Origin: an uncultured Micavibrio sp.
GTDB lineage: Bacteria; Pseudomonadota; Alphaproteobacteria; Micavibrionales; UBA2020
Direction: 5' to 3'
Assembly (NCBI GenBank): GCA_964551435.1
Contig: CAZKBS010000009.1
Coordinates: 709 to 64,708 of the forward strand
DNA: 64,000 nucleotides
In this document: positions 7,209 through 38,973 of the stretch, in pieces
How the letters are laid out: each line of letters opens with the position of its first letter
Position numbering within the stretch: the first letter of the stretch is position 1
Notes under the pieces: generated by a model
The model's database searches: none
What the model was told of the DNA's origin: nothing
What the model saw: only the letters and a program-made list of their open reading frames with translations
Made by a program: the position numbers and the translations under genes

Positions 7209-7277
7209 ACGCGCAGCACGCGCGTGGGCGTAAACACGGGGACAGCATAAAACCGCCGCAGCCAAGAGGGAGATAAC

Positions 7278-10200: not shown

Positions 10201-10718
10201 TGCTGCCGGGTATCACCGCGAAGCTGGAAAAGATCGAGGGGATTGATGCACCCAATACCGGCAAGCTGATCATTCATGGCCCGAACATCATGAAGGGTTA
10301 TCTGAAATCCGACGCCCCCGGCATGCTGCAACCGCCCGAAGGCGGCTGGTACGATACCGGCGATATCGTGGCGCAGGACGAAGCGGGCTATATCACCATT
10401 CAGGGACGCATGAAGCGTTTCGCCAAAATCGGCGGTGAAATGGTCTCGCTGACAGCGGTAGAAAGCGCGCTGCAAAAATTGTGGCCCGACACGCAGCATG
10501 CGGTTGTCAGTGTCAAGGATGACAAAAAAGGCGAAAAGCTGATTTTGTTCACAACGCAGCCGCAGGCGGCGTCCGAAGACATCACGCGTCATTTCCGCAG
10601 TCTGGGTATCAACGAGCTGTCTATTCCGCGCCAGATACAGCAGGTGGCGGAAATCCCGCTGCTGGGCACGGGCAAGACGGATTACGTGACCCTGCAAAAA
10701 CAGGCGGCGGCGCTTTAA
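7278..10718 (+). CDS. aas: Tripartite fusion: LplT-like MFS lysophospholipid transporter + PlsC-type acyltransferase + acyl-ACP synthetase (Aas)
   Basis: The N-terminal ~400 aa are multi-pass MFS. The centre carries an HX4D acyltransferase motif (NHTSFLD) and FPEGRIT. The C-terminal region carries AMP-binding motifs (FTSGSEGAPKG, GYGATE, GGEMVS). Confidence 0.87.
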   Translation: MSILKSRRFLPLFVTQFLGAFNDNLFKNAMVMLITFRLAEQAHMSPQLLVTVAAGVFILPFFLFSATAGQLADKYDRARIARMVKLAEIALMALASIGFVTGNIWILMFLLFGMGTHSAFFGPVKYAILPQHLKADELLAGNAYVEAATFLSILLGTIAGGLLVMAERGEWVISIAIVSVAIAGYFASRQIPEAPGPSPDLQVNPKFWSETGRMMRDTQTDVAVYRCILAISWFWLVGATYLTQFPSYAKDYLHSNETVVTLLLTLFSIGIGVGSVLCEKLLKGRVQLTYVPLAAIGMAIFGVDLYFATGHEASHVAGAGELVTAATFAATTGGMRVMADLFLIAVCGGMFVVPLYAMVQQRAKGAMLARTIAGLNVMNSLFMVVSAVVCVILIQMAFTIPAIFLVMALCNILVAIYIVHLLPEDLMRSVARAVLGWAYGVEIKGMENFEAAGKRVLIVANHTSFLDAALIAAYLPVKITFAVNTHVADKWWIKPFLTLVDAFPLDPTNPMAIKSLVEEVRQDKIAMIFPEGRITVTGSLMKVYEGPGLIADKAQARLLPIRIDGAQYTPFSRLRGKVNIRWFPKITLTVLPPCDFQLPEDARGRRRRQLAASKLYDLMSGMMFEASDSNETLIRALMRARRLHGGKHVVCEDPQRQPMDYQRLISAAFAFARVLNRQIPAARADASVPAVGVLLPNMTGTVLTFFALHIMRRAPAMLNFSAGPANIVSACQTAELTHVISSRRFVEMGKLVPVVDAIEGAGVSMIYLEDVRSRIGLGDKLYGLAARLWPELMERMCKPAATPDDAAVVLFTSGSEGAPKGVVLSHRNIRANCHQIGSRVDFGPTDIVFNCLPMFHSFGLTGGTLLPILSGLRAFYYPSPLHYRIVPELIYDTNATILFGTDTFLGGYARFAHPYDFHAIRYIFAGAEKLKEETRKIYAEKYGVRIFEGYGATETAPVISINTPMHNKPGSVGRLLPGITAKLEKIEGIDAPNTGKLIIHGPNIMKGYLKSDAPGMLQPPEGGWYDTGDIVAQDEAGYITIQGRMKRFAKIGGEMVSLTAVESALQKLWPDTQHAVVSVKDDKKGEKLILFTTQPQAASEDITRHFRSLGINELSIPRQIQQVAEIPLLGTGKTDYVTLQKQAAAL

Positions 10719-10724
10719 CGCGGT

Positions 10725-11246
10725 TTATCCGGCGCGGGCGAAGGGCGGCAGGTGCGGCAACTTATCGTCGCTGCGATATTCCTTGTGGCTTTCGCTGACT
10801 TCGCCGCGTGGCGAGATATGCAGCGTCAGCTCGTGCGTGCCGGTTTTGTCGCTCGCGCGGGCGGTTGCTTGCCAGCCGTCGTCGTGGCGCGTGGCGCGGA
10901 CGCGCAGCAGCAGGCTCGCGCTGCCGAAATAAAGCCGGAAGGCCAGATAGAATTCGATATTCTGTTCATCAAGTGCCAGCGGCGCCGCGGCATTGGCGCT
11001 GTGGATATTCGCGGTGCTGCCATCGAGCGGTATAACGTCTTCGGGCAACAGAACGTAATATTGTGCGGGGCTTGCCGCCTGCGGTTTTACCGCGCGCGCC
11101 AGACGGGCATCCGCCCCGTAAAAAGGCAGCGGCATCAGCGCCAGCGCGGTATCGCTGCCGTAACGCGTCACAGGCTCGGCGGCATTGATTCTGTGCAGAA
11201 TTTCCGTGCTTTGCGCGATAGAGGGTATTTGCCAGCCGTCGGACAT
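10725..11246 (-). CDS. Hypothetical protein (173 aa), no recognisable domain
   Basis: Start chosen at MSDGWQ, preceded by an AGAGG RBS. The longer track ORF would overlap the holC start. The opposite-strand ORF is Arg-rich and looks like an artefact. Confidence 0.5.
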   Translation of the reverse strand: MSDGWQIPSIAQSTEILHRINAAEPVTRYGSDTALALMPLPFYGADARLARAVKPQAASPAQYYVLLPEDVIPLDGSTANIHSANAAAPLALDEQNIEFYLAFRLYFGSASLLLRVRATRHDDGWQATARASDKTGTHELTLHISPRGEVSESHKEYRSDDKLPHLPPFARAG

Positions 11247-11330
11247 GCGTGCCTCTTGCCTTTTGGGGACGATGGCCGATAATAACATGCTCTTTCTTAT
11301 CCTCACAATCCCGCGCAGGCGGACGGAGCC

Positions 11331-11777
11331 ATGACGGATATTCGTTTTTATCACATGATCACCAAGCGGCTCGAACAGGCCTTGCCGGAGCTATTGGCCA
11401 AGGCCATTACCGTGCAGCCGCGTATTGTGGTCAAGGCGGGCAGCCGCGAGCGGATTGAAACCCTTGATAGTCTTTTGTGGACATATGATGCCGGCAGTTT
11501 CCTGCCGCATGGGTATATCCGCGACGGCAACGAGGCGGAACAGCCGATATGGCTGACGACCGAGGACGACAACCCGAACGGCGCGCAGATGCTGGTGCTG
11601 GCCGATGGTGCAACATCGCTGCATGTCAGAGATTATACGCTCTGCTGCGAGCTGTTTGACGGCAATGACGAAGCCGCCGTCAAGGCCGCACGCGCCCGCT
11701 GGAGCGCTTACAAGGCCGATGGGCATGAACTGACCTATTTCCAGCAGGACGAACAGGGCCGCTGGGTTAAAAAATAA
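11331..11777 (+). CDS. holC: DNA polymerase III chi subunit
   Basis: 148 aa. N-terminus MTDIRFYHM...LLWTYD...FLPHG is typical of HolC, and the gene lies near pepA. Confidence 0.85.
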   Translation: MTDIRFYHMITKRLEQALPELLAKAITVQPRIVVKAGSRERIETLDSLLWTYDAGSFLPHGYIRDGNEAEQPIWLTTEDDNPNGAQMLVLADGATSLHVRDYTLCCELFDGNDEAAVKAARARWSAYKADGHELTYFQQDEQGRWVKK

Positions 11778-11789
11778 CCCGAATATCCA

Positions 11790-12149
11790 TCAATCGTTGC
11801 AGGGAAAGCCGCGGGCAATCGCGACGGCAACATTTTTCGCCGCCGCACCGCGCAGGTTTTCGGGGAAGACTTCGGCATAGCTGCGATAAAGATCGATCAG
11901 CTGCTGGCTGCGGATGGGGCCGTGGCTGCATGCACGCTCCCCGCTGACCGGGCCGACGAGCATCGCATTCGCAATCGCGCTGACATATCCTGCGCAAAAC
12001 CCGTAATCCGTATCGTATTTGCTGTTACACATGCCCAGCAGCTCGTTGCCGCTCAAGCCTTCGCTGCTGACGCTGGCCGCGGCGGGCGTGATAGCAGCCG
12101 CTGCCCAAAGGCAGGCGGCAAGGACAGGGGACATTAGCGCGCGCAGCAT
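11790..12149 (-). CDS. Exported Rap1a/Tai4-like (T6SS amidase immunity family) protein
   Basis: Signal peptide, then the pattern GNELLGMC...CAGYVSAIANAM...C...QLIDLYRSYAEVFPE...AIARGFPC. This matches my recollection of Rap1a/Tai4 family proteins. ACGGAG RBS lies before ATG 12149. Confidence 0.55.
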   Translation of the reverse strand: MLRALMSPVLAACLWAAAAITPAAASVSSEGLSGNELLGMCNSKYDTDYGFCAGYVSAIANAMLVGPVSGERACSHGPIRSQQLIDLYRSYAEVFPENLRGAAAKNVAVAIARGFPCND

Positions 12150-12198
12150 ATAAAACTCCGTCAGGGGGGGATATTTCCTTTTATCACGGCGGCAGGGC

Positions 12199-12237
12199 AA
12201 AAAAAAGCGGCCCCTCCGTTTGAAGGGGCCGCTTTTT
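12199..12237 (-). terminator. Intrinsic terminator after M23 peptidase gene
   Basis: A 9-bp stem GCGGCCCCT/AGGGGCCGC is followed on the minus strand by T8. Confidence 0.82.
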
Positions 12238-12251
12238 AAAGGCTGTAAAAT

Positions 12252-13871
12252 TTAGCGGGAGGCCTGACGCGTCTTGCCGCCGGTTTTGACGGGCCGGCTG
12301 TCCGCGATAACCATGCCGTTCATCAGCTTGTCGAACTGCTGGTTGCGTTCGGCGACCATATCCTTGAAGCGGCCGAGGTCTTTGCCCTCCAGTATTTTGC
12401 CGGTCGGCAGGCGCAGCGAAGCCGGATCCACATGCTTGCCATTGACCAGAATTTCGTAATGCAGGTGCGGGCCGGTGGAACGACCGGTCGTGCCAACGTA
12501 GCCGATAATCTGGCCCTGCTTGACGCGGCTGCCATTCGACAGGCCGGCGCGGAAGCCGTTCATATGGGCATAGGCCGTTTGCAGATCCTTGCGGTGGCGG
12601 ATACGGATATAGTTGCCGTAGCCGTTCACGCTGCCGATCTTGTCGATGGTGCCATCGCCTGCTGCATAAATCGGCGTGCCGCGCGGGGCTGCGAAGTCGA
12701 TACCCTTGTGCATTTTGCTGTAGCCCAGAATGGGATGGCGGCGCATGCCGAAGCCCGAGCTGAGACGCGCGCCGTCAATCGGCGTTTTCATCAGGGATTT
12801 TTTCGCCGACTGGCCTTTGTTGTCGAAATAATCGGTATCGCCCGAAGGAGAACTATACAGATAGAACGGCATTTCACGGCCGCCAAGGGTCAGCTTCGCG
12901 TACATGATGGTGTTGCGGCCAGCGAGGACATCACCGCCGTCTGTGGCGAATTCTTCGTACATGACTTCGAATTTGTCGCCGGGCTGGATATCGCGCTGGA
13001 AGTCGACGTTCCAGGAATACATTTTGATGAGGTCAAGAATGACTGCATCCGGCACGCCGCTGTTTTTTGCGGAAACATACAGCGAGTTGTCAATTTGACC
13101 GCCAGCTGCTTTCAGGCTGCGGTAGACGGGCTTTTCCTGCTCGTCGACTTTATAGCTGCCGTCTTGCGCAAGGTTGACCATGACCGTGCTGATCTTGTCT
13201 TTTTCAATCTGCAAGCCGCTGAACTTCGGGTCAGCAACTGCGGGGTCTTTGTGGAAAAAAACCGTGATGGCGTGGCCGGGGTTGAGATCGCGCGGGTTGT
13301 AAACCTTGCTCAGCGCCTGAATAGCGTTATAGGCGTCGCTGCGCGGCACATCGTTGCGCACCAGCAGATCCATCAGCGTATCGCCACGGCCGACGGCCAG
13401 TTTTTTTTCGGCGACAAAAAGATCATTACCGGCTTGCAGCAGGTTTTGCAGGCGCGATTGAATTTGTGACAGCGTTTCCGCAACCGCTGGAGGAACTTGC
13501 GCAGGGGCGATTTTCGGCGCGGCGGCCTGGATCGTTTTTTGCGGCTTGGGCGCGGCGGTATCGCCACGTGCGAAGTCGCTGAATTCATGTGTTGCCGGCG
13601 GCGGCACGTATTCGAACGCAGCTTTCATGTTGCCGGGGACGTTGCCTGCAATATTTTCAATGCCTTCGAATTGCGCGGCGTTCGCGGCGGGTGTCATGAC
13701 ATCGGCAGCCGCCATTGTCGGGGCGGTGCTTTGCGTGTCGGTGGCAGGTGCGCCAAGCCATGACAGCATGGCGTAAACGGATGCAATGGCGGCGACAGGA
13801 AGAAGGGCGTGACGCAAACGGAAACGGCGCTTGCGGAACATTCTTGTGCGCGGTGAATAATACTGCAGCAA
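12252..13871 (-). CDS. M23 family peptidoglycan DD-metalloendopeptidase
   Basis: C-terminal HKGIDFAAPRGTPIYAAGDG and GPHLHYEILVNG motifs. The N-terminus has a membrane anchor and a long linker. An alternative start lies at MFRKRRF (13841). Confidence 0.87.
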   Translation of the reverse strand: MLQYYSPRTRMFRKRRFRLRHALLPVAAIASVYAMLSWLGAPATDTQSTAPTMAAADVMTPAANAAQFEGIENIAGNVPGNMKAAFEYVPPPATHEFSDFARGDTAAPKPQKTIQAAAPKIAPAQVPPAVAETLSQIQSRLQNLLQAGNDLFVAEKKLAVGRGDTLMDLLVRNDVPRSDAYNAIQALSKVYNPRDLNPGHAITVFFHKDPAVADPKFSGLQIEKDKISTVMVNLAQDGSYKVDEQEKPVYRSLKAAGGQIDNSLYVSAKNSGVPDAVILDLIKMYSWNVDFQRDIQPGDKFEVMYEEFATDGGDVLAGRNTIMYAKLTLGGREMPFYLYSSPSGDTDYFDNKGQSAKKSLMKTPIDGARLSSGFGMRRHPILGYSKMHKGIDFAAPRGTPIYAAGDGTIDKIGSVNGYGNYIRIRHRKDLQTAYAHMNGFRAGLSNGSRVKQGQIIGYVGTTGRSTGPHLHYEILVNGKHVDPASLRLPTGKILEGKDLGRFKDMVAERNQQFDKLMNGMVIADSRPVKTGGKTRQASR

Positions 13872-30003: not shown

Positions 30004-32880
30004 ATGTCTCAACGCAGCGCCCTCAGTTTCCTCTCCGCCGTCGATGGTGATTACATCGCGGGGCTTTACGAGAAATTCCTGCAAAACCCCGCGGCGGTTG
30101 ACGCCAGCTGGGCCGATTTGTTCAAGGATATGGGCGCGGAAGGCAAGGAGCTGATTGCCGAATTGAAAGGCGCCAGCTGGACGCCGTCGCCGGAGAAGCT
30201 CTCCGCCGTGCTGTCGACCGCCGCCAATAACGAAGACGCCGCAAAACCCGCCGCCAAAAAAGGCGATAAAGCCGCCGCGCCTGCTGCTGCTGTGGATGCG
30301 CGCGCCGTGCAGGATGCCATCCGCGCACAGATGCTCATCCGCGGTTACCGCGTGCGCGGGCATTTCCTTGCCAACCTCGACCCGCTGGGCCTGTCGCAAA
30401 AACACCACCATGCGGATCTGGACATCCGTACCTATGGCTTTACCGAAGCCGACCTTGGCCGCGAGATTTTTGTCGATGGCACGTTCGGCGCGCAAAAACT
30501 GACCCTCGCGCAGATCATCGAAAAACTGCAGGCGTCCTACTGCCAGTCGATCGGTCTTGAATATATGCACATTCAGGACCTCGGCCAGCGTCTGTGGCTG
30601 CAGGAGCGTTTCGAACAGCCCCATGCCGGCATCAACTTCACGCCCGCGGAGAAAAAACATTTCCTGCAGCGCCTGACGGCTGCGGAAGGTTTCGAGAAAT
30701 TCCTCGATATGAAATACACCGGCACCAAACGCTTCGGCGTCGAGGGGGGTGAAGCCAGCATTCCCGCCATCGAAGAGGTTATCGCCACCGGCGCGCGCAT
30801 GGGCGTGCGCGAGGTTGTGGTCGCCATGGCGCATCGTGGCCGGCTTAACGTGCTGACCAACGTGATGGGCAAGACGTTTACGGCCATGTTCTCCGAGTTT
30901 CAGGGCACGCCCGCGAAACCGGATGATGTTCAGGGCTCCGGCGACGTCAAATACCACCTCGGCACTTCTTCCGACCGCGATTTCGGCGGCCAGATCGTGC
31001 ATCTGTCGCTGACGCCGAACCCGTCGCATCTTGAATTCGTCGACCCTGTCGCCGTCGGCAAAGTCCGCGCGAAACAGGATATGAGCCGCGATGATGAACG
31101 CCTGTCGGTGATGGCGCTGCTGATCCATGGTGACGCCGCCGTATCTGGTCAGGGCATCGTGCCCGAAACGCTGATGATGTCCGACCTGCCGGGTTACCGC
31201 GTTGGCGGCACCATGCACGTTGTGATCAACAACCAGATCGGCTTTACGACCGCGCCGTCCTATTCGCGCTCCGGCAATTACTGCACGGACGTCGCGAAAA
31301 TGGTGCAGTCGCCGATTTTCCACGTCAACGGCGACGATGTGGATGCCGTAATGCATGCGGCGCGTCTGGCTGTCGAATTCCGCCAGACCTTCAAAAAAGA
31401 CGTGTTCCTCGACATCGTTTGCTATCGCCGTCACGGCCACAACGAGTCTGACGAGCCTGCCTTCACCCAGCCGCAGATGTATAAGGTCATCAAGGGCAAG
31501 AAAACCACTCGCACCCTTTATGCCGAGCAGCTGAACGCCGAAGGCATCTTGACCGCCGAAGAAACCGACCAGATGTACGCCGACTGGAACGCGTATCTGG
31601 AGAAGGAATTCATCGCGGCGACCAGCTATAAACCCAACCGCGCCGATATGCTCGAAGGTCACTGGACAGGCCTCAAGCAGGCGCATGGTGACGAGCGCCG
31701 CGGCGAAACCGCGATCAGCGAAGAGGTCATGCAGAAAATCGGCAAGGCGATTACGTCCGTGCCGGATGGTTTCGACCTCAACAGCAAAATCGCCCGCCAG
31801 CTGGATGCGAAAAAGAAAATGTTCGAAACCGGCGAAGGTTTCGACTGGGCAACGGCCGAGGCGCTGGCCTACGGTTCGCTGGCGCTAGAGGGGCACCCCG
31901 TGCGCCTGTCCGGTCAGGATTGCGGCCGCGGCACGTTCTCGCAGCGGCATGCGGCACTGACCGACCAGACGACCGAACAGCGTTATATCCCCCTTAACAA
32001 CATCGACCCCGCACAGGCGACGTTCGAAGTGCATGACAGCCCGCTCAGCGAAGCGGCTGTTCTGGGCTTTGAATACGGCTATTCCACCGCGAACCCGAAA
32101 TCGCTGGTGCTGTGGGAAGGCCAGTTCGGCGATTTCGTCAACGGTGCGCAGGTCATCATCGACCAGTTCATCGCGTCTGCCGAAACCAAATGGCTGCGCA
32201 TGTCGGGTCTTGTCATGCTGCTGCCGCACGGTTTCGAAGGGCAGGGGCCGGAACACTCCTCGGGCCGTCTGGAGCGTTTCCTCCAGCTCTGCGCCGAAGA
32301 CAACTGGCAGGTGCTCAACTGCTCGACGCCCGCCAACTATTTCCATGCGCTGCGCCGCCAGATGCGCCGCGACTTCCGCAAGCCGCTGGTCATCATGACG
32401 CCGAAATCGCTGCTGCGTCATAAACTGTGCGTATCGCCGGCCAGCATGTTCACGGGCAAGGAAACGTTCCACCGCGTCCTGCACGAAGACAACCCGCTGC
32501 CGGTCAAAGGCATCAAGCGCGTGGTCATTTGCAGCGGCAAGGTTTACTACGACCTGCTCGAAGCGCGCGAAAAAGCGGGCATCACCAACGTTGCGCTGGT
32601 GCGTCTGGAGCAGTTCTACCCCTTCCCCGAAAAACCGCTGGCGGAAGAACTTGCCAAATATCCGAACGCCGATGTGATCTGGTGTCAGGAAGAACCGGAA
32701 AACCAGGGCGGCTGGAACTTCGTCGATCGCCGCATCGAAAAGGCGCTCGCCAGCATCAAGCACAAGGCGGGCAGACCCGTTTATGTCGGACGCCCTGCGG
32801 CGGCGGCGCCTGCCACGGGCTCGCTCAAAACCCACAACAAGGAACAGGAAGCGCTGGTCACGGCCGCGCTGACGGTTTGA
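30004..32880 (+). CDS. sucA: 2-oxoglutarate dehydrogenase E1
   Basis: 958 aa starting at MSQRSALSFL, with typical E1o ThDP-binding regions (the track ORF starts 30 codons upstream). Confidence 0.96.
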   Translation: MSQRSALSFLSAVDGDYIAGLYEKFLQNPAAVDASWADLFKDMGAEGKELIAELKGASWTPSPEKLSAVLSTAANNEDAAKPAAKKGDKAAAPAAAVDARAVQDAIRAQMLIRGYRVRGHFLANLDPLGLSQKHHHADLDIRTYGFTEADLGREIFVDGTFGAQKLTLAQIIEKLQASYCQSIGLEYMHIQDLGQRLWLQERFEQPHAGINFTPAEKKHFLQRLTAAEGFEKFLDMKYTGTKRFGVEGGEASIPAIEEVIATGARMGVREVVVAMAHRGRLNVLTNVMGKTFTAMFSEFQGTPAKPDDVQGSGDVKYHLGTSSDRDFGGQIVHLSLTPNPSHLEFVDPVAVGKVRAKQDMSRDDERLSVMALLIHGDAAVSGQGIVPETLMMSDLPGYRVGGTMHVVINNQIGFTTAPSYSRSGNYCTDVAKMVQSPIFHVNGDDVDAVMHAARLAVEFRQTFKKDVFLDIVCYRRHGHNESDEPAFTQPQMYKVIKGKKTTRTLYAEQLNAEGILTAEETDQMYADWNAYLEKEFIAATSYKPNRADMLEGHWTGLKQAHGDERRGETAISEEVMQKIGKAITSVPDGFDLNSKIARQLDAKKKMFETGEGFDWATAEALAYGSLALEGHPVRLSGQDCGRGTFSQRHAALTDQTTEQRYIPLNNIDPAQATFEVHDSPLSEAAVLGFEYGYSTANPKSLVLWEGQFGDFVNGAQVIIDQFIASAETKWLRMSGLVMLLPHGFEGQGPEHSSGRLERFLQLCAEDNWQVLNCSTPANYFHALRRQMRRDFRKPLVIMTPKSLLRHKLCVSPASMFTGKETFHRVLHEDNPLPVKGIKRVVICSGKVYYDLLEAREKAGITNVALVRLEQFYPFPEKPLAEELAKYPNADVIWCQEEPENQGGWNFVDRRIEKALASIKHKAGRPVYVGRPAAAAPATGSLKTHNKEQEALVTAALTV

Positions 32881-32922
32881 TATACGTTAAGCTTAAGCAC
32901 AGAGAAAAGAAGGTAAATCATC

Positions 32923-34137
32923 ATGGCCACTGAAATCATCGTTCCCGCCCTCGGCGAATCCGTCAAGGAAGCGACTGTTGCGAAATGGCTCAAAAACGTC
33001 GGCGACAGCATCGCCGTTGACGAGCCGCTGGTCGAGCTGGAAACAGACAAGGTGACGCTGGAAGTCAACGCCAAATCCGCGGGCGTTCTGAAGGAAATCA
33101 AAGTCCAGACCGGTGGCAACGTCGAGGTGGGCGCGATCCTCGGTTTCATTACCGAAGGCGGCGCGGCAGCCCCCAAGGCGGATAAAAAAGCCGCCCCCGC
33201 CAAGGCCGAAGCGCCCAAGGCGCAGCAGGCCGCCGCCAAGGCGTCGAACAACGACACCTTCCTGTCGCCCGCGCCGCGTAAAATCGCCGATGATAACGGC
33301 CTCGATGTATCGGGCCTGCAAGGCAGCGGCAAAGACGGCCGCATCACCAAGGGTGACGTGCTCGAAGCGCTGAAAGCGCCGGCAGCAACGCCCGCCGCCA
33401 AGGCACCCGCGCAGGCGTCTGGCCCGCGCGCGAAGGCCGACCGCGAAGAGCGCGTCAAGATGACCCGCCTGCGCCAGCGGATCGCCGAGCGTCTGAAAGA
33501 GGCGCAAAACACCGCCGCGATGCTTACGACCTTTAACGAAGTCGATATGAGCCATATCATCGCGCTGCGCAACCAGTACAAAGACAGCTTTGAAAAGAAA
33601 CACGGCATCAAGCTCGGTTTCATGTCGTTCTTCGTCAAGGCCGCCATTCAGGCGCTGAAAGATTTTCCTGCAGTCAACGCGGAAATCGACGGCACCGATA
33701 TCGTCTACAAAAACTACTACGATATCGGCGTTGCGGTATCGACCCCGACGGGTCTTGTCGTGCCGGTAGTGCGCGATGCGGACGTGAAAGGCTTCGCGTC
33801 GATTGAAAAAGAAATCGGCGATCTTGGCCTGCGCGCGCGTGATGGCAAACTGGGCCTCGACGAGCTGTCGGGTGGTACGTTTACCATTACCAACGGCGGC
33901 GTTTTCGGCTCCCTGCTGTCGACGCCCATCATCAACCCGCCGCAATCGGCCATCCTCGGCATGCACGCGACCAAAGAGCGCGCGGTCGTGGTGAACGGCC
34001 AGGTTGTCGCCCGCCCGATGATGTATATCGCCCTCAGCTATGACCACCGCATTATTGACGGCAAGGAAGCGGTTTCCTTCCTTGTGCGTATCAAGGATGC
34101 TATCGAAGATCCGCAGCGTCTGCTGCTCGACGTTTGA
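32923..34137 (+). CDS. sucB: Dihydrolipoamide succinyltransferase E2
   Basis: Lipoyl domain (ETDKV), an Ala/Pro linker, and catalytic DHRIIDG. Confidence 0.96.
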
Positions 34138-34144
34138 TAAGGGA

Positions 34145-34175
34145 GGGGCGCCCGCTTGTGGCGCCCCGCTTTTTT
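34145..34175 (+). terminator. Intrinsic terminator after sucB
   Basis: An 8-bp GC stem GGGGCGCC/GGCGCCCC, a 7-nt loop, then GC + T6. Confidence 0.8.
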
Positions 34176-34176
34176 G

Positions 34177-34959
34177 ATGAAACGCTTGTTTGCCATTTGT
34201 CTGGTGATTTTCTCTGTTGCCGCGGTTTCTCAGGCAGTGGCAAAAAAAGTTGCTGCCGAACCCGCCGTGCCTGCGGCGGCGCAGAATGCGGCAGGAGATT
34301 ACGTGGTTCTGATGCATGGTATCGGGCGCAGCCCTGCAGCCATGCGTAAGATGGAAACGGATCTGCGCCGTCGTGGCTATGCGGTTTTGAACCTCGGCTA
34401 TGACTCGCGGAAATATGACCTTGATACGCTTGCGGCGCGCATGCAGCCCGATGTCGAAGCCTTTGCCGCCGATAAAGGCCGCAAGCTGCATTTCGTCGGG
34501 CATTCTATGGGTGCGCTGGTTATTCGTACCTATCTGCAGAAGTACAAGCCGGAAAATCTGGGCCGCGTGGTTGCGCTCGGCAGTCCGAACGGCGGCAGCG
34601 AAGTGGCAGATTTTCTCAATAAAACGGGGATTTTTCAAAAAATATATGGCCCCGCGGGCCAGCAGCTGCGCACGTCCTACGAAATCTATAAAACCTTCGG
34701 CAAGCCGTTTTATGATATCGGCGTGATTGCGGGTGACCGCACGATTGATCCCATTTCATCCATCATCATTCCCGGCGATGACGATGGCAAGGTGTCGATT
34801 GCCAGCACGCATATTGCCGGTGAAAAAGACCATATTGTGCTGCATGCCAACCATGCCACCATGCCGTCGAATGCGGCGGTGGTGATTGAAACCGCGCATT
34901 TCCTCAAATACGGGTTTTTCAAGCGGGACGGGGTGAAAAAAGAAAATCATGCTCCTTGA
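34177..34959 (+). CDS. Exported alpha/beta hydrolase (lipase/esterase-like)
   Basis: Signal peptide MKRLFAICLVIFSVAAVSQA, HG oxyanion region (VVLMHGIG) and nucleophile elbow GHSMG. Confidence 0.75.
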   Translation: MKRLFAICLVIFSVAAVSQAVAKKVAAEPAVPAAAQNAAGDYVVLMHGIGRSPAAMRKMETDLRRRGYAVLNLGYDSRKYDLDTLAARMQPDVEAFAADKGRKLHFVGHSMGALVIRTYLQKYKPENLGRVVALGSPNGGSEVADFLNKTGIFQKIYGPAGQQLRTSYEIYKTFGKPFYDIGVIAGDRTIDPISSIIIPGDDDGKVSIASTHIAGEKDHIVLHANHATMPSNAAVVIETAHFLKYGFFKRDGVKKENHAP

Positions 34960-35176
34960 ACAATGGATCAGCCGCGACGATGACGTCATGAGCGGCCAGA
35001 CGGTTTTTCGCGGCACGCGCGTACCGGTGGCGGTGCTGTTCGATAATTTGCAGGACGGGATGCGGATGGAGGAAATCCTCGAAGCCTATCCATCCATCCC
35101 CGCCGATGCGGCGGCGGCGGTGCTGTCCTATGCGCTGCGCGTGATCCTTGAGCAAACGGGTGAACAGCAGCCATGA
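34949..35176 (+). CDS. DUF433 protein (antitoxin-like)
   Basis: 75 aa. VMSGQTVFRGTRVPVAVLFDNL...MEEILEAYP matches my recollection of DUF433. It overlaps the hydrolase end by 11 nt. Confidence 0.7.
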   Translation: MLLEQWISRDDDVMSGQTVFRGTRVPVAVLFDNLQDGMRMEEILEAYPSIPADAAAAVLSYALRVILEQTGEQQP

Positions 35177-35577
35177 TAAAAATTCTGGTCGATGAATGCC
35201 TGCCTGTGAAAATGGTCGAATGGCTGCGCGCAGGCGGCTTCGAAGCGCGCAGCGTCGCGCATATGGGCTGGAGCGGCCGCAAGGATGCCGATATTCTGAC
35301 GCTGGCGGAGCGTGAAGGTTTTTCCGTGCTTCTGACCGCCGATGCCAATATGAAAGACCAGCACCGCTTCGAACACCGTGAGCTCGCCGTGCTGGCGCTG
35401 CCTGCCAACCGCCTGCAAACGGTCGAGGGCATCGTGCCGCAGGTTCGTCACTCGCTTAAAAATCTGGCGCCGGGTACGTTTACGGTGATGGATTTTACGG
35501 CAGCGACAGATTGGCGCGCAGCGGCGCCTGCGGGTGAAAACCGGCAGGGCGGCGTGACGTATCACCGCTTTAAATAA
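35173..35577 (+). CDS. DUF5615 / PIN-like (Mut7-C-like) protein (toxin-like)
   Basis: MIKILVDECLP N-terminus with acidic residues spaced as in PIN-like domains. ATGA overlap with the DUF433 gene. Confidence 0.68.
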   Translation: MIKILVDECLPVKMVEWLRAGGFEARSVAHMGWSGRKDADILTLAEREGFSVLLTADANMKDQHRFEHRELAVLALPANRLQTVEGIVPQVRHSLKNLAPGTFTVMDFTAATDWRAAAPAGENRQGGVTYHRFK

Positions 35578-35595
35578 TCAAACTTCGCGTGATTT

Positions 35596-36591
35596 TTAGA
35601 TGCCGAGCGAACCTTGCTTCGGCTTGTCGGGCGCGTTTTTGGGTGCGGGCTTTTCATCCGGCGTGAACTGCGTGGCGCTGACGACTTTCCAGTGCATGTC
35701 CAGAAATACAACGGGGTTGTTTTCATCCAACTCTCGCCGCGCGCGCTGCGCTTCGTGCCAGTGCAGGGACGGGCGGGCGATCAGATGCACAACCTCGCCG
35801 CGCAGGGTCTGGCGGAATTTATCGTCTGTATCGGCACGCTGCAGCATCACGATGCGCTGGCCGGGCTTTTTGAAAATGTTGACGGGGGTGCCGCGCAAAG
35901 CCTTGGTGCGGCCTTCGCGGCTGCCTTCGGTCGCGTTAAAACGGATAAGACGCGGGAAATCGGTGATTTCCTGCACGCTGTGAATGGCATCGGGGCCGTG
36001 CGGTTTGTGCTGGCGCGGCGTCGATTGCATGGTCAGGTACATGTTATTCAGCAGGGTTCTGAATTTGTCTTTGCTGTCGATGATGAAATCTTCGAGCGGC
36101 AGGGTCTTTCCCTGATAGTTCACGCGGGTTTTTGCGCGTGCAGCGTCACCGCCCTTGTCGGTGATGGTTTCGATGTAGCTTAGCATATCCTCGACATTGC
36201 GCGCGCCGACGGCCACGTAATCGCGCACCTCGTTGGTGCTGGACTGGCATACCAGCGCGCCCGCGACACCGTTAAAGTTTTCCATCAGGCGGACGTTGAG
36301 GTTGATAACGATATTCTTGCCTTCGCGTATGGCCTGTTCCAGCGACTTGCGGTGTTTCGCCTGAATGGCGAGTTCTTCGTGCGCGTTGCAATCGGTGATG
36401 TGGTCTTTGACGTTCTTGGAAAAGAAATGCGCGCTTTTCAGGGCGAGGCTGCCATGTGTCAGAGCTTCGCGGCGGAACCCCATATGGGCATTGCAATCGG
36501 GGTCGGCACAGAGAAGGTCGCTGCCGTGCTCTTCTTTTTTATACTGATGCGCCAGAAGAACCTGTCCGTCCGGCAAGCGTGCTTTTTTCAT
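35596..36591 (-). CDS. 331-aa orphan with N-terminal CX4C...HX3C motif
   Basis: Uninterrupted ORF convergent with the TA-like pair. The translation has balanced, protein-like composition. No recognisable catalytic domain and no signal peptide. Confidence 0.6.
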   Translation of the reverse strand: MKKARLPDGQVLLAHQYKKEEHGSDLLCADPDCNAHMGFRREALTHGSLALKSAHFFSKNVKDHITDCNAHEELAIQAKHRKSLEQAIREGKNIVINLNVRLMENFNGVAGALVCQSSTNEVRDYVAVGARNVEDMLSYIETITDKGGDAARAKTRVNYQGKTLPLEDFIIDSKDKFRTLLNNMYLTMQSTPRQHKPHGPDAIHSVQEITDFPRLIRFNATEGSREGRTKALRGTPVNIFKKPGQRIVMLQRADTDDKFRQTLRGEVVHLIARPSLHWHEAQRARRELDENNPVVFLDMHWKVVSATQFTPDEKPAPKNAPDKPKQGSLGI

Positions 36592-36710
36592 GTCAGATGC
36601 CCCCGCAAATGCGCATTTAACATAACAAAAATTCCGGTTTTTGGCAAGGTTTTGTCCCGCCTATGGTGGCCAGATGCCGGAAATAATTGAAATATCTCTA
36701 AAAAAAGTAA

Positions 36711-36745
36711 AAGGGCCGGTGTTACGGACCGGCCCTTTCTTCTTG
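36711..36745. terminator. Orphan perfect 10-bp hairpin (bidirectional terminator-like)
   Basis: AAGGGCCGGT / ACCGGCCCTT with a 7-nt loop. TTTCTTCTT follows on the plus strand and TTACTTTTTTT follows on the minus strand. Confidence 0.65.
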
Positions 36746-36979
36746 AAGACACCCTCTATCAAGAAACTTCTTCGATAGCAAAGGAGATCGCTTGAATCGA
36801 AGATTCCCGAATATCAAAAAACGCCGATTCTGGTCAAGACACTTTCTCAAAAAAATCAATATTTTCACAATAATAACAGGTGGCGGGCAAGCAGCGCGGC
36901 AGGCCATTTGACTCGAAAACGGACGCTGTTTGGCGTACAGTCGGCACAGAAAAACCGCTCAAAAAACAAAGAGGGAAAC

Positions 36980-38386
36980 ATGTCTTCTGAAACTTTCGAC
37001 GTTGTGGTGATTGGCTCCGGCCCCGGCGGCTATGTCTGCGCGATCCGCGCCGCGCAGCTGGGTCTCAAAACCGCCTGCATCGAAAAAGACAACACGCTGG
37101 GCGGTACCTGCCTCAACGTCGGCTGCATACCCTCCAAGGCGCTTCTGAGCGTATCCGAGAAATTTGCACACGCAGAGCATGACTTCGCCGGTCTTGGTAT
37201 TGATGTGGGCAAGCCGAAGCTTGATCTCAAAAAAATGATGACCCACAAAGACAAGGTGGTTGCCGCCAATACGCAGGGCATCAGCTTCCTGTTCAAGAAA
37301 AACAAGGTCACCCATATCGTGGGCACGGGCAGCATCAGCGCCCCCGGCACGGTCGAAGTTAACGGCAAGGACGGCAAGAAAACTATCGGTGCCAAAAATA
37401 TTGTGATTGCGACGGGTTCTGAATCCACGCCGCTGCGCGGGATTGAAGTTGATGAAAAAAATATCGTCACCTCGACCGGCGCGCTGGCGCTCGATAAGGT
37501 GCCGGCCAGCCTTGCCGTGATTGGCGGCGGTGTCATTGGCCTTGAAATGGGCACGGTCTGGCAGCGTCTGGGCGCGAAAGTCACGGTGATCGAATTCCTC
37601 GACCGCGTATTGCCGGGCATGGATGGTGAAGTGTCCAAAGAGATGAAAAAAATCCTCGCCAAACAGGGCATGGAATTCAAGCTGGGCACGAAAGTCACCG
37701 GTGCAGAAACTAAAAAAGGCAAAGTCACCCTGACGCTGGAGCCTGCGAATGGCGGGACGGCGGAAAAGCTGGAAGTCGAAACCGTCCTGCTCGCGATTGG
37801 CCGCCGCCCTTATACGGCGGGCCTCGGTCTTGAAAAAGTCGGCGTCAATGTCGACAACCGCGGCATGGTGCAGATCGACGACCATTTCCAGACCAATGTC
37901 CCCGGCATTTATGCCATCGGCGACGTGGTGCGCGGCCCCATGCTGGCGCATAAAGCCGAAGACGAAGGTGTGGTGCTGGCCGAAATCATCGCTGGCCAGT
38001 CGGGCCATATCAATTACGACTGTATCCCCGGCGTGGTCTATACGGCCCCCGAAGCGGCCAGCGTCGGCAAAACCGAAGAACAGCTGAAAGAAGCGGGTAT
38101 TCCCTACAAAGCGGGCAAGTTCCCCTTCATGGCGAATGGCCGCGCGCGCGCCATGGCGGCGACGGATGGCTTTGTGAAAATCCTCGCCCATGCGGAAACC
38201 GACCGCGTGCTCGGCTGTCACATCGTCGGGCCCGAAGCGGGCACGTTGATTGCCGAAGTTGTCGCGGTGATGGAATTCGGCGGCAGCGCCGAAGACATTG
38301 CGCGCATCTGCCATGCGCACCCGACGCTGAACGAAGTCGTCAAGGAAGCGGCGCTGGCTGTCGATGGCCGCCCGATCCACATCTGA
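36980..38386 (+). CDS. lpdA: Dihydrolipoyl dehydrogenase E3
   Basis: FDVVVIGSGPGGY FAD motif and redox-active GGTCLNVGCIPSK. AGAGGGA RBS precedes it (the track ORF starts 24 codons upstream). Confidence 0.96.
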   Translation: MSSETFDVVVIGSGPGGYVCAIRAAQLGLKTACIEKDNTLGGTCLNVGCIPSKALLSVSEKFAHAEHDFAGLGIDVGKPKLDLKKMMTHKDKVVAANTQGISFLFKKNKVTHIVGTGSISAPGTVEVNGKDGKKTIGAKNIVIATGSESTPLRGIEVDEKNIVTSTGALALDKVPASLAVIGGGVIGLEMGTVWQRLGAKVTVIEFLDRVLPGMDGEVSKEMKKILAKQGMEFKLGTKVTGAETKKGKVTLTLEPANGGTAEKLEVETVLLAIGRRPYTAGLGLEKVGVNVDNRGMVQIDDHFQTNVPGIYAIGDVVRGPMLAHKAEDEGVVLAEIIAGQSGHINYDCIPGVVYTAPEAASVGKTEEQLKEAGIPYKAGKFPFMANGRARAMAATDGFVKILAHAETDRVLGCHIVGPEAGTLIAEVVAVMEFGGSAEDIARICHAHPTLNEVVKEAALAVDGRPIHI

Positions 38387-38973
38387 TGCGCACGCGCCTG
38401 ACAGCGGCGGGTTTGTTTTTGTGCGGGCTGCTGGCCTTTGCGCTGCCCGCATTTGCGCAAACCCTGCAGGCACCGGCGCAGCCGGATCTGAAAGCGCAGG
38501 AAGCAAACAGCCTGTTTGACGGGCTTTGTTTGGCCTATCTGGGGCAGGGCAACAAAATGCTCGAACAGGCCTATAGCATTGGCGCGAAGCCGATGCCGTC
38601 TTTTTTCGCCCAGCAGTTTCTGGGGCAGCACAAGGGCGTGGGGCTTGCCATTCAGGGCCGCGGCAGCCTTTATATGCTCGGCCTGACAGAGCAGCCGTCC
38701 TGCCTGATTGCCTCACCGGAAGCCAATGGCGTCTCCGCGCTGCAAATATTCGGCGCGGGCGCGCGGCGCCTGCTGGTAACGGAAGGTACGGTCGATGGCC
38801 AATATCAGCAGGTATATGCCGTCATTAAACAAGATGCCGTCACGGGGCATCAGAAGAGCATGATTGTGATTGCCACCATTTCGCCGCAAGGTGCGCCGGG
38901 TGTTGTGCTGAACGCGCTGCCCGCGCAAACGGCCGAGGCGATGGGAATTGTGCCGGAGAAATGGCCGGAATAA
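38386..38973 (+). CDS. Exported hypothetical protein
   Basis: Signal peptide ending AFAQ. The ATG overlaps the lpdA TGA by 1 nt (TGATG). No recognised domain. Confidence 0.55.
   Translation: MRTRLTAAGLFLCGLLAFALPAFAQTLQAPAQPDLKAQEANSLFDGLCLAYLGQGNKMLEQAYSIGAKPMPSFFAQQFLGQHKGVGLAIQGRGSLYMLGLTEQPSCLIASPEANGVSALQIFGAGARRLLVTEGTVDGQYQQVYAVIKQDAVTGHQKSMIVIATISPQGAPGVVLNALPAQTAEAMGIVPEKWPE

Follow-up and report, generated by a model that had tools for sequence, protein, structure and literature searches.

Trans-acting small RNAs (sRNAs) with CU-rich, anti-Shine-Dalgarno-like loops and tandem copies are exemplified in Alphaproteobacteria by AbcR, alpha-r14/15 and the CcsR 'cuckoo' RNAs. Among toxin-antitoxin (TA) pairs of the DUF433/PIN type, the COG2442 antitoxin VapB10 has been validated in Synechocystis and VapBC10 has been expressed in E. 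coli (PMC3834315), and further literature on this type is available (PMC5499597, PMC2701414). The Q-x-x-L-x-F pattern at a protein terminus has the shape of the motif through which proteins bind the bacterial sliding clamp (PMC9690074). Elements that resemble each of these systems, together with a hydrolase gene, lie between sucB and lpdA in the 64,000-nt stretch of DNA analyzed here (the window). The sucB gene (32923-34137, plus strand), encoding E2 of 2-oxoglutarate dehydrogenase, is the final gene of mdh-sucCDAB, and its product matched TIGR01347 (598 bits), NF004309 (636 bits) and the Pfam families 2-oxoacid_dh, Biotin_lipoyl and E3_binding. The lpdA gene (36980-38386, plus strand) encodes dihydrolipoyl dehydrogenase, E3 (TIGR01350, 599 bits). 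The original prediction described the genes between them as an accessory four-gene cassette, which would be either an old domesticated insertion or a TA-anchored addiction or defence islet sheltered by an essential operon. All of its genes, overlaps and hairpins were found where they had been placed, but the 2.8-kb interval is probably a mosaic of old and new parts rather than a single accessory cassette, comprising a hydrolase, a TA pair, an orphan protein, a candidate small RNA and a promoter of lpdA's own.

The ancestry of the interval was judged over 13 related loci, whose layouts were ordered by SucB identity. At 99% SucB identity all four genes were present. At 96%, the TA pair was either complete, with a PIN gene product of just 55% identity (L094), or reduced to DUF433 (L081). 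Relatives at 86-88% and 79% had the hydrolase and the orphan but neither TA gene, and at 77% the orphan was the only one of the four present. The order sucB-hydrolase-orphan-lpdA was kept in every relative with the orphan beside sucB, from 99% down to 79% SucB identity (L092-L097, L081, L083, L088 and L002), and the divergent orphan-lpdA pair persisted in L085, L089 and L098, where sucAB are located elsewhere. Moreover, the identities of the hydrolase and of the orphan each dropped monotonically with that of SucB. Since neither the hydrolase nor the orphan has left its place down to 79% SucB identity, and both have diverged in step with SucB and LpdA, the comparisons indicate that they are ancestral residents that were inherited vertically. 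The original prediction had named conservation of the same genes in the same order as the mark of an ancestral layout, and this is what the relatives displayed for the hydrolase and the orphan but not for the TA pair; the accessory label thus holds for the TA pair, which was restricted to relatives with SucB identity of 96% or more, and fails for the other two genes.

That the four genes were acquired horizontally as one TA-anchored addiction or anti-phage islet in the TCA operon would agree with their lack of relationship to 2-oxoglutarate dehydrogenase, with the presence of a TA pair, with the terminator and the long spacer that bracket the interval, and with the adjacency of sucB and lpdA (gap of at most 150 bp) in 29 of 66 alphaproteobacterial loci. 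However, all relatives down to 79% SucB identity have the hydrolase and the orphan at this position, whereas most lack the TA genes. As had been stated, no integrase or transposase was found in the block by gene calls and Pfam, and direct repeats around it were limited to short, chance-level matches. The block as a whole showed no composition shift, its GC content falling inside the local range, and the orphan family gave no tblastn match in plasmid or phage collections. Mobility genes, repeats, deviant composition and patchiness, the usual signs of an acquired islet, were thus not seen for the block as a whole, and the TA pair alone was patchy. None of the four proteins matched a PADLOC-DB family at E values up to 0.1, which speaks against a defence islet. 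In addition, a sucB-lpdA gap of 0.7-6.4 kb occurred in 25 of the 66 loci (38% of the sample). The junction is therefore variable across the sampled Alphaproteobacteria, and the description of genes sheltering inside an essential operon was overstated. A single acquired cassette is already largely refuted by synteny, and we consider it extremely improbable.

The TA pair fits the mosaic as its new part. The antitoxin-like, VapB-like DUF433 (COG2442) gene (34949-35176, plus strand) matched PF04255 at 67.4 bits (cut-off 23.6), with profile positions 1-56 of 56 covered, and its product matched PDB entry 2ga1, also a DUF433 protein, at an E value of 1e-3. Its start overlaps the 3' end of the hydrolase gene by 11 nt. 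The toxin-like DUF5615/PIN_10 gene (35173-35577, plus strand), encoding a PIN-like protein of the Mut7-C group, matched PF18480 at 46.2 bits (cut-off 23.8) and PF18478 at 29.5 bits (cut-off 26.2). The two genes lie on the same strand with the antitoxin first and share the predicted ATGA overlap (35173-35176). Judged from the sequence itself, acidic residues D7/E8 (in LVDE), D38/D40 and D56 (in TADAN) of the PIN-like protein appear to lie at the expected strand ends. By arrangement and domain content, the pair would be a VapBC-like type II TA module of the DUF433-PIN_10/COG4634 kind, with a partner that is toxin-like by sequence. The DUF433 gene was detected only in L092, L093, L094 and L081/L082, being 81% identical in L094, and the PIN gene was missing from L081 and from all relatives with SucB identity of at most 88%; the pair is confined to a shallow sub-clade (SucB identity of at least 96%). 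The PIN protein was 33-40% identical to the products of DUF5615 genes on cyanobacterial plasmids, and those homologues were always paired with DUF433. In the window, the pair is located between two convergent stop codons, those of the hydrolase and the orphan, a tail-to-tail junction and as such a neutral spot. The pair thus appears to be the sole accessory part of the interval, of a common kind and recently inserted, having probably entered the 2-6 nt gap between these stop codons. It may act as an ordinary selfish module, one that seems to be already decaying in the L081 lineage, which has lost the PIN gene.

Evidence on transcripts came from assembled metatranscriptome contigs of a strain roughly 98% identical, which are strandless and flat in depth. 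The organism was transcriptionally active in bioreactor enrichment cultures. Downstream of sucB, the terminator scan matched an intrinsic terminator (34145-34175, plus strand) as predicted, consisting of a hairpin (34145-34167) with an 8-bp all-GC stem and a 7-nt loop, followed by T6 at 34170-34175. The hairpin and the T-run were held at the same position with a changed stem sequence in L081, L083 and L094-L097. Contigs covering sucB stopped at 34179 (run X27) and 34204 (run X28) and were followed by lower-depth hydrolase contigs, and in run X26 one contig was unbroken from 32800 to 35300 across the terminator. The sucB terminator therefore appears leaky.

The hydrolase gene (34177-34959, plus strand) encodes a lipase/esterase-like alpha/beta hydrolase of 260 aa that is predicted to be exported, and its ATG lies 1 nt past the T-tract, as the original prediction had it. 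Some gene callers chose an alternative start, TTG at 34156 (267 aa), which sits in the hairpin loop after a strong AAGGGAGG Shine-Dalgarno sequence. The protein has a signal-peptide-like N-terminus and a GHSMG nucleophile elbow of the G-x-S-x-G form at residues 108-112, inside the Abhydrolase_1 and Abhydrolase_6 matches; its Pfam matches, which also include Palm_thioest (44 bits) and DUF676, are to generic alpha/beta-hydrolase families only. It matched esterase/lipase in PHROG, and the closest PDB sequences were family I bacterial lipases, which matched around the elbow only. The gene was located 3' of sucB in 12 related loci with 48-96% identity, and its ATG and the sucB stop codon overlap in L088 and L002. 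These data suggest an exported lipase/esterase-like protein, long resident directly 3' of sucB, that would be expressed in this clade via read-through of the leaky terminator and in distant relatives by translational coupling to sucB. A functional tie between the hydrolase and the suc operon, such as thioesterase action on an intermediate of acyl-CoA or lipoyl type, might be read from the thioesterase family that gave the top Pfam match, from the constant position directly 3' of sucB and from the coupling in L088 and L002. However, the clear N-terminal export signal implies a site of action beyond the cytoplasm, in surroundings that lack CoA thioesters. Moreover, the nearest solved relatives are secreted lipases, and the gene is absent from L086, L085, L089 and most Alphaproteobacteria. 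Such a tie is thus very unlikely, and a lipase or esterase carried as a passenger is the preferred reading.

Convergent to the hydrolase and TA genes and divergent from lpdA, the orphan gene (35596-36591, minus strand) encodes the predicted 331-aa protein, which had no match in Pfam, NCBIfam, PADLOC, PHROG or the PDB sequences. Neither the orphan nor the hydrolase was placed in a well-characterised metabolic family, an outcome in favour of the original prediction. The orphan belongs to a family of 37 close clusters, extended to about 145 clusters by profile search, and C28, C33, H64 and C68 (CCHC) were invariant in 81 diverse members. An AF2 model was confident (pLDDT 90.4, pTM 0.86) with pLDDT dropping in the tail, and a fold search of this model against the PDB gave no match (best E 0.17, TM at most 0.15). 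In the close family, P-x-Q-x-x-L-(F/x) is found at the extreme C-terminus after a length-variable linker, with Q326 invariant; the orphan itself ends in KQGSLGI, in which QGSLGI is a weaker variant of the motif. Across the wider family, 51 of 133 members (38%) carried Q-x-x-[LMIF]-x?-[FLIM] within their last 15 residues, versus 2.5% of internal windows, and 62% of remote members had no such motif there. The neighbours of remote homologues were heterogeneous (Smr in 2 cases, GNAT in 2, and once RNase HII with a CcrM-like methylase) and give no consistent functional context. By its conserved residues, the orphan founds an undescribed family of putative CCHC-zinc proteins with a beta-clamp-binding-like C-terminal motif. 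The gene appears to be vertically inherited, and its product combines a confidently predicted fold that has no PDB match with a disordered tail, which ends in a motif like the QL(S/D)LF motif of clamp binders. The protein might be a zinc-dependent factor that acts on DNA, its tethering to the sliding clamp being suggested solely by this short linear motif.

The orphan appears to have its own sigma70-type promoter (36619-36647, minus strand; TTGCCA-17-TATGTT with an extended TG), which was matched by the promoter scan and whose GTTATGTTAAA box and GGCAA element are conserved in relatives. In four runs, contigs covering the orphan ended at 36595-36615, and in X26 they were adapter-flanked there. 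On the other side, the AT-rich leader of about 390 bp predicted upstream of lpdA corresponds to a 388-bp spacer with 44-49% GC versus about 58-60% in the surroundings. Here, a conserved box on the plus strand (TTGACTCGAAAAC...TTTGGCGTACAGT, 36908-36941) that may serve as promoter and/or operator was found in all 14 aligned spacers, and it misfits canonical -35/-10 spacing. Contigs of lpdA began at 36963-36967 in five runs, again adapter-flanked in X26, and positions 36620-36960 were without contig coverage in three runs, although contigs show presence, not absence. These data indicate that lpdA and the orphan each have a 5' end of their own; the original prediction had raised the possibility that lpdA is driven from its own promoter, and this appears to be so.

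This divergent arrangement bears on another reading of the orphan, as a zinc-finger transcription factor of its divergent neighbours (lpdA and/or the sRNA) whose tail is a degron or other interaction motif. The orphan-lpdA pair and its shared conserved spacer are kept to 45% protein identity, even without sucAB, the CCHC site is invariant, and the TTGACTCGAAAA box upstream of lpdA, with its non-canonical spacing, could be an operator. However, remote members and the 47%-identical member in L087 do not adjoin lpdA, no DNA-binding domain was recognisable in the orphan by Pfam or fold search, and the terminal Q-x-x-L-x-F has the shape of a clamp-binding motif (PMC9690074). A transcription factor therefore seems rather unlikely.

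The spacer also holds a candidate sRNA gene of about 105 nt (36701-36809, minus strand), preceded by a candidate promoter (36810-36837, minus strand; TTGACC-16-GATATT, scan match). In the element, a 5' stem-loop carries UCUCC as an invariant loop, UAGAGGGUGU forms a single-stranded stretch, and the terminator hairpin at 36709-36739, whose CCGUAAC loop is likewise invariant, leads into a U-run. It was the best-conserved block of the spacer across loci whose orphans are only 45-50% identical. A covariance model (R1) scored 18 copies at 62-115 bits, all of them in loci with the orphan beside lpdA or on the truncated contig L002, which ends before lpdA; TTGAC and TGATATT were invariant or nearly so in all 18, including each of the tandem copies in L085, L088, L089 and L098, every one of which has its own -35/-10 and terminator. 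The predicted folding energy of the element was -43.1 kcal/mol (z -5.19), 89.7% of cells were paired versus 43-65% in slid controls, nine pairs showed double changes, and many G-U pairs were valid on the minus strand only. Rfam gave no match in the window at gathering thresholds, the best sub-threshold match being PtaRNA1 (23 bits versus 47). The region was covered within longer unstranded contigs in X5 and X25, the two deepest runs, and was uncovered in X26-X30, and X31 covered the 3' 45 nt only (36701-36745, the terminator hairpin); RNAs of about 100 nt get lost in standard libraries. With a promoter, an intrinsic terminator and a covarying structure, the element has the features of an independent sRNA gene and is a candidate for one.

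The orphan and the element share a strand, the element comes first and it ends in a terminator, as an attenuator would. If it were a cis-acting leader or attenuator for the orphan, or a regulatory palindrome acting at the DNA level, this would further suit a 151-nt X31 contig (36595-36745), which reaches from the 5' end of the orphan past the terminator, and the invariant CCGTAAC hairpin loop, which is unusual in a plain terminator. Against this, each tandem copy carries its own -35/-10 and terminator, a separate conserved orphan promoter lies between the element and the ATG, contigs ended at that promoter in four runs with the element uncovered in three of the four, and the G-U pairs favour structure at the RNA level. 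We thus regard a cis-acting element as a minor possibility and prefer a free-standing, trans-acting sRNA. The 'AT-rich leader' would then be a compact regulatory hub holding a minus-strand sRNA gene with its own promoter and terminator, and the RNA might act as a base-pairing regulator via its CU-rich loop. The broader proposal that the orphan family comprises new CCHC-zinc, novel-fold beta-clamp clients in replication or repair, the gene being locked in this alphaproteobacterial lineage into one hub that it shares with lpdA and a new family of sRNAs, is tentative and on balance doubtful. If true, the hub would hint at a link between central carbon or redox state and DNA transactions, and the clamp interaction would add one more client to the bacterial sliding-clamp interactome. 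The candidate sRNA has unusually clean conservation of promoter, structure and terminator at a fixed site beside lpdA. More generally, the 'foreign-looking' genes in this core operon are probably mostly an old vertical layout plus one ordinary TA insertion, a case that is useful for calibrating scans in which interrupted operons are flagged as islands.

Compared with family I lipases and COG1075-type secreted esterases, the hydrolase is far shorter (260 aa), its likeness is confined to about 60 residues around the elbow and no lipase chaperone (lif) gene is nearby, but it shares the signal peptide and GHSMG elbow and shows local similarity with Burkholderia and Pseudomonas lipases as well as with the esterase/lipase families of PHROG. 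The TA pair shares with the Synechocystis VapBC10 and Mycobacterium tuberculosis VapBC45 type a small antitoxin gene placed first, with an ATGA overlap onto a PIN-like gene of about 130 aa, Pfam matches to DUF433 and DUF5615/PIN_10, homologues that are paired on plasmids and a patchy distribution among close relatives; it differs in being just 33-40% identical to the plasmid homologues and in that no promoter of its own is visible, the DUF433 start lying inside the hydrolase 3' end. Like beta-clamp binders with a C-terminal QL(S/D)LF-type motif, among them Pol IV, UmuC, MutS and Caulobacter SocB, the orphan consists of a folded body, a disordered linker of variable length and a terminal Q-x-x-L-x-F/L (PMC9690074), whereas its folded part resembled neither a known clamp client nor any Pfam family or PDB fold, and the motif is found in only 38% of the wider family. 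Finally, the candidate sRNA differs from AbcR, alpha-r14/15 and CcsR in having no Rfam match, in being fixed to one locus between the orphan and lpdA and in the invariant sequence of its terminator loop, but it shares with them a length of about 100 nt, its own sigma70-type promoter, a Rho-independent terminator, a conserved CUCC-containing hairpin loop and tandem duplication in some genomes.

The layout of the interval between sucB (32923-34137, +) and lpdA (36980-38386, +) was found to be as originally described. The sucB 3' end at 34137 is followed by a hairpin (34145-34167) with an all-GC stem of 8 bp and then by a T6 run, behind which a hydrolase gene begins with ATG 34177 (34177-34959, +). 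It encodes a 260-aa protein whose N-terminus (MKRLFAICLVIFSVAAVSQAVA) resembles an export signal and which carries a GHSMG elbow. The end of the hydrolase gene is overlapped by 11 nt by a DUF433 gene (34949-35176, +; 75 aa; 67 bits), which shares an ATGA overlap with a DUF5615/PIN_10 gene (35173-35577, +; 134 aa). A convergent 331-aa ORF (35596-36591, -), hereafter the orphan, comes last and is separated from the lpdA start at 36980 by 388 bp of spacer (44-49% GC). The only repeats flanking the four-gene block are short ones of the kind expected by chance, and with a GC content of 51-61% against ~58-62% in the suc genes, the four genes do not form a clear compositional island. On the other side of lpdA, a 195-aa ORF (38386-38973, +), whose ATG shares one base with the lpdA stop, scores 32.6 bits against the NMCC_0638 (lipo)protein family (cut-off 28); it is kept in close relatives and missing from loci L083 and L086.

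The four genes had been proposed to be one accessory cassette, either an old domesticated insertion or a toxin-antitoxin (TA)-anchored addiction/defence islet. To compare layouts, a SucB search of species-representative genomes yielding 80 loci was supplemented with 13 further informative loci from a metagenome scan for homologues of the orphan and from look-ups of genomic context, and the window proteins were mapped by tblastn onto the related loci. The order sucB-hydrolase-DUF433-PIN-orphan-lpdA was found in L092 and L093 (SucB 99%) and in L094 (SucB 96%), in which the PIN protein is only 55% and the DUF433 protein 81% identical. L081 and L082 (SucB 96%) have DUF433 without PIN and a short hairpin in PIN's place. 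At SucB 86-88% (L083, L095-L097), the order is sucB-hydrolase-orphan-lpdA with no TA pair and with the convergent stops 2-6 nt apart; L088 and L002 (SucB 79%) also show this order without the TA pair, the L002 contig stopping short of lpdA, and L086 (SucB 77%) has sucB-orphan-lpdA. Where sucAB are not adjacent, the divergent orphan-lpdA pair is still present in L085, L089 and L098, and the orphan lies at another place in L087. Across the series, hydrolase identity drops from 96 to 67, 52-59 and 48-50% and orphan identity from 100 to 81-88, 67-75 and 44-52%, along with SucB and LpdA, as expected under vertical descent. These data indicate that the hydrolase and the orphan are old residents of the interval, and that the TA pair is the sole recent insertion, placed exactly at the hydrolase/orphan tail-to-tail junction. 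The proposal of an accessory cassette or defence islet is upheld for the TA pair only; for the hydrolase and the orphan it is contradicted by the presence of the same genes in the same order in relatives. In L085, a flank at 9040-13746 carries TPR-sulfotransferase, KTSC-domain and TIR_2-domain genes; unlike the window, it may be a genuine accessory or defence patch.

The sucB-lpdA junction is a recurrently variable site in Alphaproteobacteria. Among the 66 loci in L001-L080 that have lpdA downstream of sucB, the gap is at most 150 bp in 29, 151-700 bp in 12, 0.7-2 kb in 20 and 3.2-6.4 kb in five. Micavibrio-like genomes carry an unrelated convergent ORF of ~320 aa in the same position, always on the minus strand (L007:12993-13958, L009:11569-12561, L033:11505-12455, L035:11735-12697, L042:11298-12275 and L061:10976-11956). 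These ORFs contain a dCMP/cytidine-deaminase zinc-binding region, and were rejected as distant orphan homologues (hhalign probability <1%).

The hydrolase is an ordinary one. Its Pfam matches are to generic alpha/beta-hydrolase families only (Palm_thioest, 44 bits; Abhydrolase_1/6; DUF676), the closest sequences of solved structures are those of secreted family I lipases, which resemble it at the nucleophile elbow only, and the matching PHROGs families are esterase/lipase. The position of the hairpin and T-run after sucB is kept across the clade although the stems differ (GGGGCGCC/GGCGCCCC, GGGGGC/GCCCCC and others), indicating a real terminator, and the hydrolase starts only 1-15 nt behind it, leaving no space for a promoter. 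L088 and L002 are without the hairpin, and there the sucB stop is overlapped by the hydrolase ATG (ATGTCTAA). Transcript data were all contigs from public metatranscriptome runs, strandless and from a bioreactor strain ~98% identical to the window. The sucB contigs stop at 34179 in run X27 and at 34204 in X28 and are followed by hydrolase contigs of lower depth, and a single unbroken contig in X26 (32800-35300) extends from sucB into the PIN gene. Our reading is that the terminator leaks and sets a low expression for a long-standing operon passenger, in a qualitative sense only since contig depth is a poor measure. In addition, within 34140-34179, some gene callers use an alternative start, TTG 34156 (267 aa), which lies within the loop of the terminator hairpin. 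Its strong AAGGGAGG Shine-Dalgarno partly makes up the hairpin 5' arm, so that hairpin formation could couple termination with translation initiation of the hydrolase.

A DUF433 (COG2442) gene beside a Mut7-C-group PIN-like gene (COG4634/PIN_10/DUF5615) is recognised as a predicted type II TA architecture (PMC2701414, PMC5499597), and one PIN-COG2442 pair, VapBC10 of Synechocystis, has been validated through toxicity and neutralisation (PMC3834315). The putative toxin of the window is 33-40% identical to DUF5615 genes of cyanobacterial and other plasmids, most of which have a DUF433 partner in annotated records. The pair is an ordinary, predicted addition to this known architecture, and PADLOC gave it no defence assignment. 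Contigs over the TA region (34862-35356) begin at 34862 in X28 and X31, which are independent runs, and X31 has no hydrolase contigs upstream of that point, a weak hint of a TA promoter within the hydrolase 3' end. In L081, the solitary DUF433 gene (9002-9310, 82 aa), with a short AAAAACACGCGG...CCGCGTGTTTT hairpin replacing the PIN gene, looks like an orphan antitoxin remaining from TA decay.

The spacer between the orphan and lpdA, formerly taken as an AT-rich leader of lpdA, appears to be a regulatory hub holding a candidate unannotated RNA gene. When the spacers of 14 loci were aligned, they showed blocks conserved far above the flanking proteins. A promoter-like TTGACC-16-GATATT (36837-36810, -) precedes a candidate sRNA of ~105 nt (36701-36809, -), whose fold has three elements: a 13-bp stem-loop in which the loop contains an invariant UCUCC, a conserved single-stranded UAGAGGGUGU, and an 11-bp GC-rich hairpin (36739-36709, -) that has CCGUAAC as its invariant loop and is followed by a U-run. 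The fold has an MFE of -43.1 kcal/mol (z -5.19). In the alignment, 89.7% of cells are paired as against 43-65% in slid controls, double changes occur in nine pairs, and the frequent G-U pairs are valid on the minus strand only. A covariance model found 18 copies (62-115 bits), all in loci that have the orphan next to lpdA, the only exception being the truncated L002, whose lpdA lies off the contig. Loci of the close clade carry a single copy, and tandem copies occur in L088, L089 and L098 (two each) and in L085 (three, at 7174-7304, 7446-7566 and 7772-7889); every copy has a -35/-10 and a terminator of its own. No matches to the model were obtained in 40 other alphaproteobacterial sucB loci, beside the displaced orphan of L087 or elsewhere in the 64-kb window, and Rfam gave none to the candidate.

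The spacer also holds the orphan's own promoter, which is conserved and has an extended TG (TTGCCA-17-TATGTT; 36647-36619, -), downstream of the sRNA element, and a conserved box upstream of lpdA (36908-36941; TTGACTCGAAAAC...TTTGGCGTACAGT). Contigs of lpdA start at 36963-36967 in five runs and those of the orphan stop at 36595-36615 in four; both ends are adapter-flanked in X26, which marks real fragment ends. The region 36620-36960 is uncovered in three runs, indicating that the contigs come from RNA and that lpdA is not merely carried on a transcript of the genes before it. The useful data came from the shallower runs; X5 gave a single flat, uninformative 13-kb contig. Coverage of the candidate sRNA region is limited to the two deepest runs, in which it falls inside longer contigs. 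An RNAduplex target scan of 50 translation-initiation regions in the window returned long spurious duplexes and did not rank the neighbours high. A plus-strand small ORF behind the conserved GGAG of the spacer was rejected on inspection of the alignment, its start codon and frame not being conserved in relatives. A 12-nt perfect inverted repeat between the sucB 3' end (34098-34109) and an sRNA stem (36769-36780; TGCTATCGAAGA/TCTTCGATAGCA) was dropped as probably a coincidence, because chance alone would give ~0.3 such matches and the polarity at the RNA level is same-sense. The conserved candidate beside lpdA is undescribed in the libraries searched, yet of a familiar kind, and is worth following up.

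The orphan itself has no match in Pfam, NCBIfam, PADLOC or PHROGs. Its family is small, with 37 clusters among 5.8 billion proteins in a word-seeded search, 145 clusters (E up to 1e-3) in a full search of 1.84 billion representatives with a profile, and one extra member from a profile search of a word-indexed database. In named sources, its members are just "hypothetical protein" entries from Alphaproteobacteria MAGs, and no relatives were found on plasmids, phages or viral contigs. Across 81 diverse members, Pfam gave chance matches in single members only, and the sole invariant residues are C28, C33, H64 and C68, a predicted C-x4-C...H-x3-C zinc-site signature. The AlphaFold2 model from the deep alignment is confident (pLDDT 90.4, pTM 0.86), and Foldseek found nothing like it in the PDB (best E 0.17, TM <=0.15); the best profile match to PDB sequences, a uricase (E 0.58), is noise. 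A shallow model (37 sequences, pLDDT 73) had given non-significant OB/SSB-like hints (probability <0.45 in PDB and BFVD libraries); the deep model did not repeat them, and hence no OB fold is claimed.

At the C-terminus, the last strand is followed by a conserved HQFTP turn, a linker variable in length and composition, and a terminal peptide. This peptide is PKQGSLGI in the window and, for example, PGQQSLFGM, PGQQTMFGL or PQQGQLKL in other members; Q326 is invariant in the close family. Of the 133 full-length wider-family members, 51 have Q-x-x-[LMIF]-x?-[FLIM] within their last 15 residues, compared with 2.5% of internal windows, and many of these motifs are textbook-like (KQLSLF, QQLKLF, KQIALF, TQLSLGI). 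The bacterial clamp-binding motif is QL(S/D)LF (PMC9690074), and the terminal motif of the family is like it in shape and position. We tentatively suggest, from this linear motif only, that the orphan might be a zinc-dependent factor recruited to DNA via the beta clamp. The main rival is that it acts as a local transcription factor, with which its fixed divergent pairing with lpdA agrees.

The contexts of remote homologues, looked up on short contigs for the most part, are heterogeneous, with GNAT acetyltransferases adjacent in two (L100 and L101) and a Smr-domain gene one to two genes upstream in two of 24-26% identity (L090:78-356 and L099:6361-6876). The L087 orphan (47% identical) lies near a gene for RNase HII and one for a CcrM-like N6/N4 methyltransferase. 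The Smr, RNase HII and CcrM-like neighbours are weak hints of a nucleic-acid-related context. The family, which combines a CCHC site, a confidently modelled fold that has no PDB match and a clamp-binding-like tail, is worth following up; it is undescribed in the libraries searched here, yet a familiar sort of thing.
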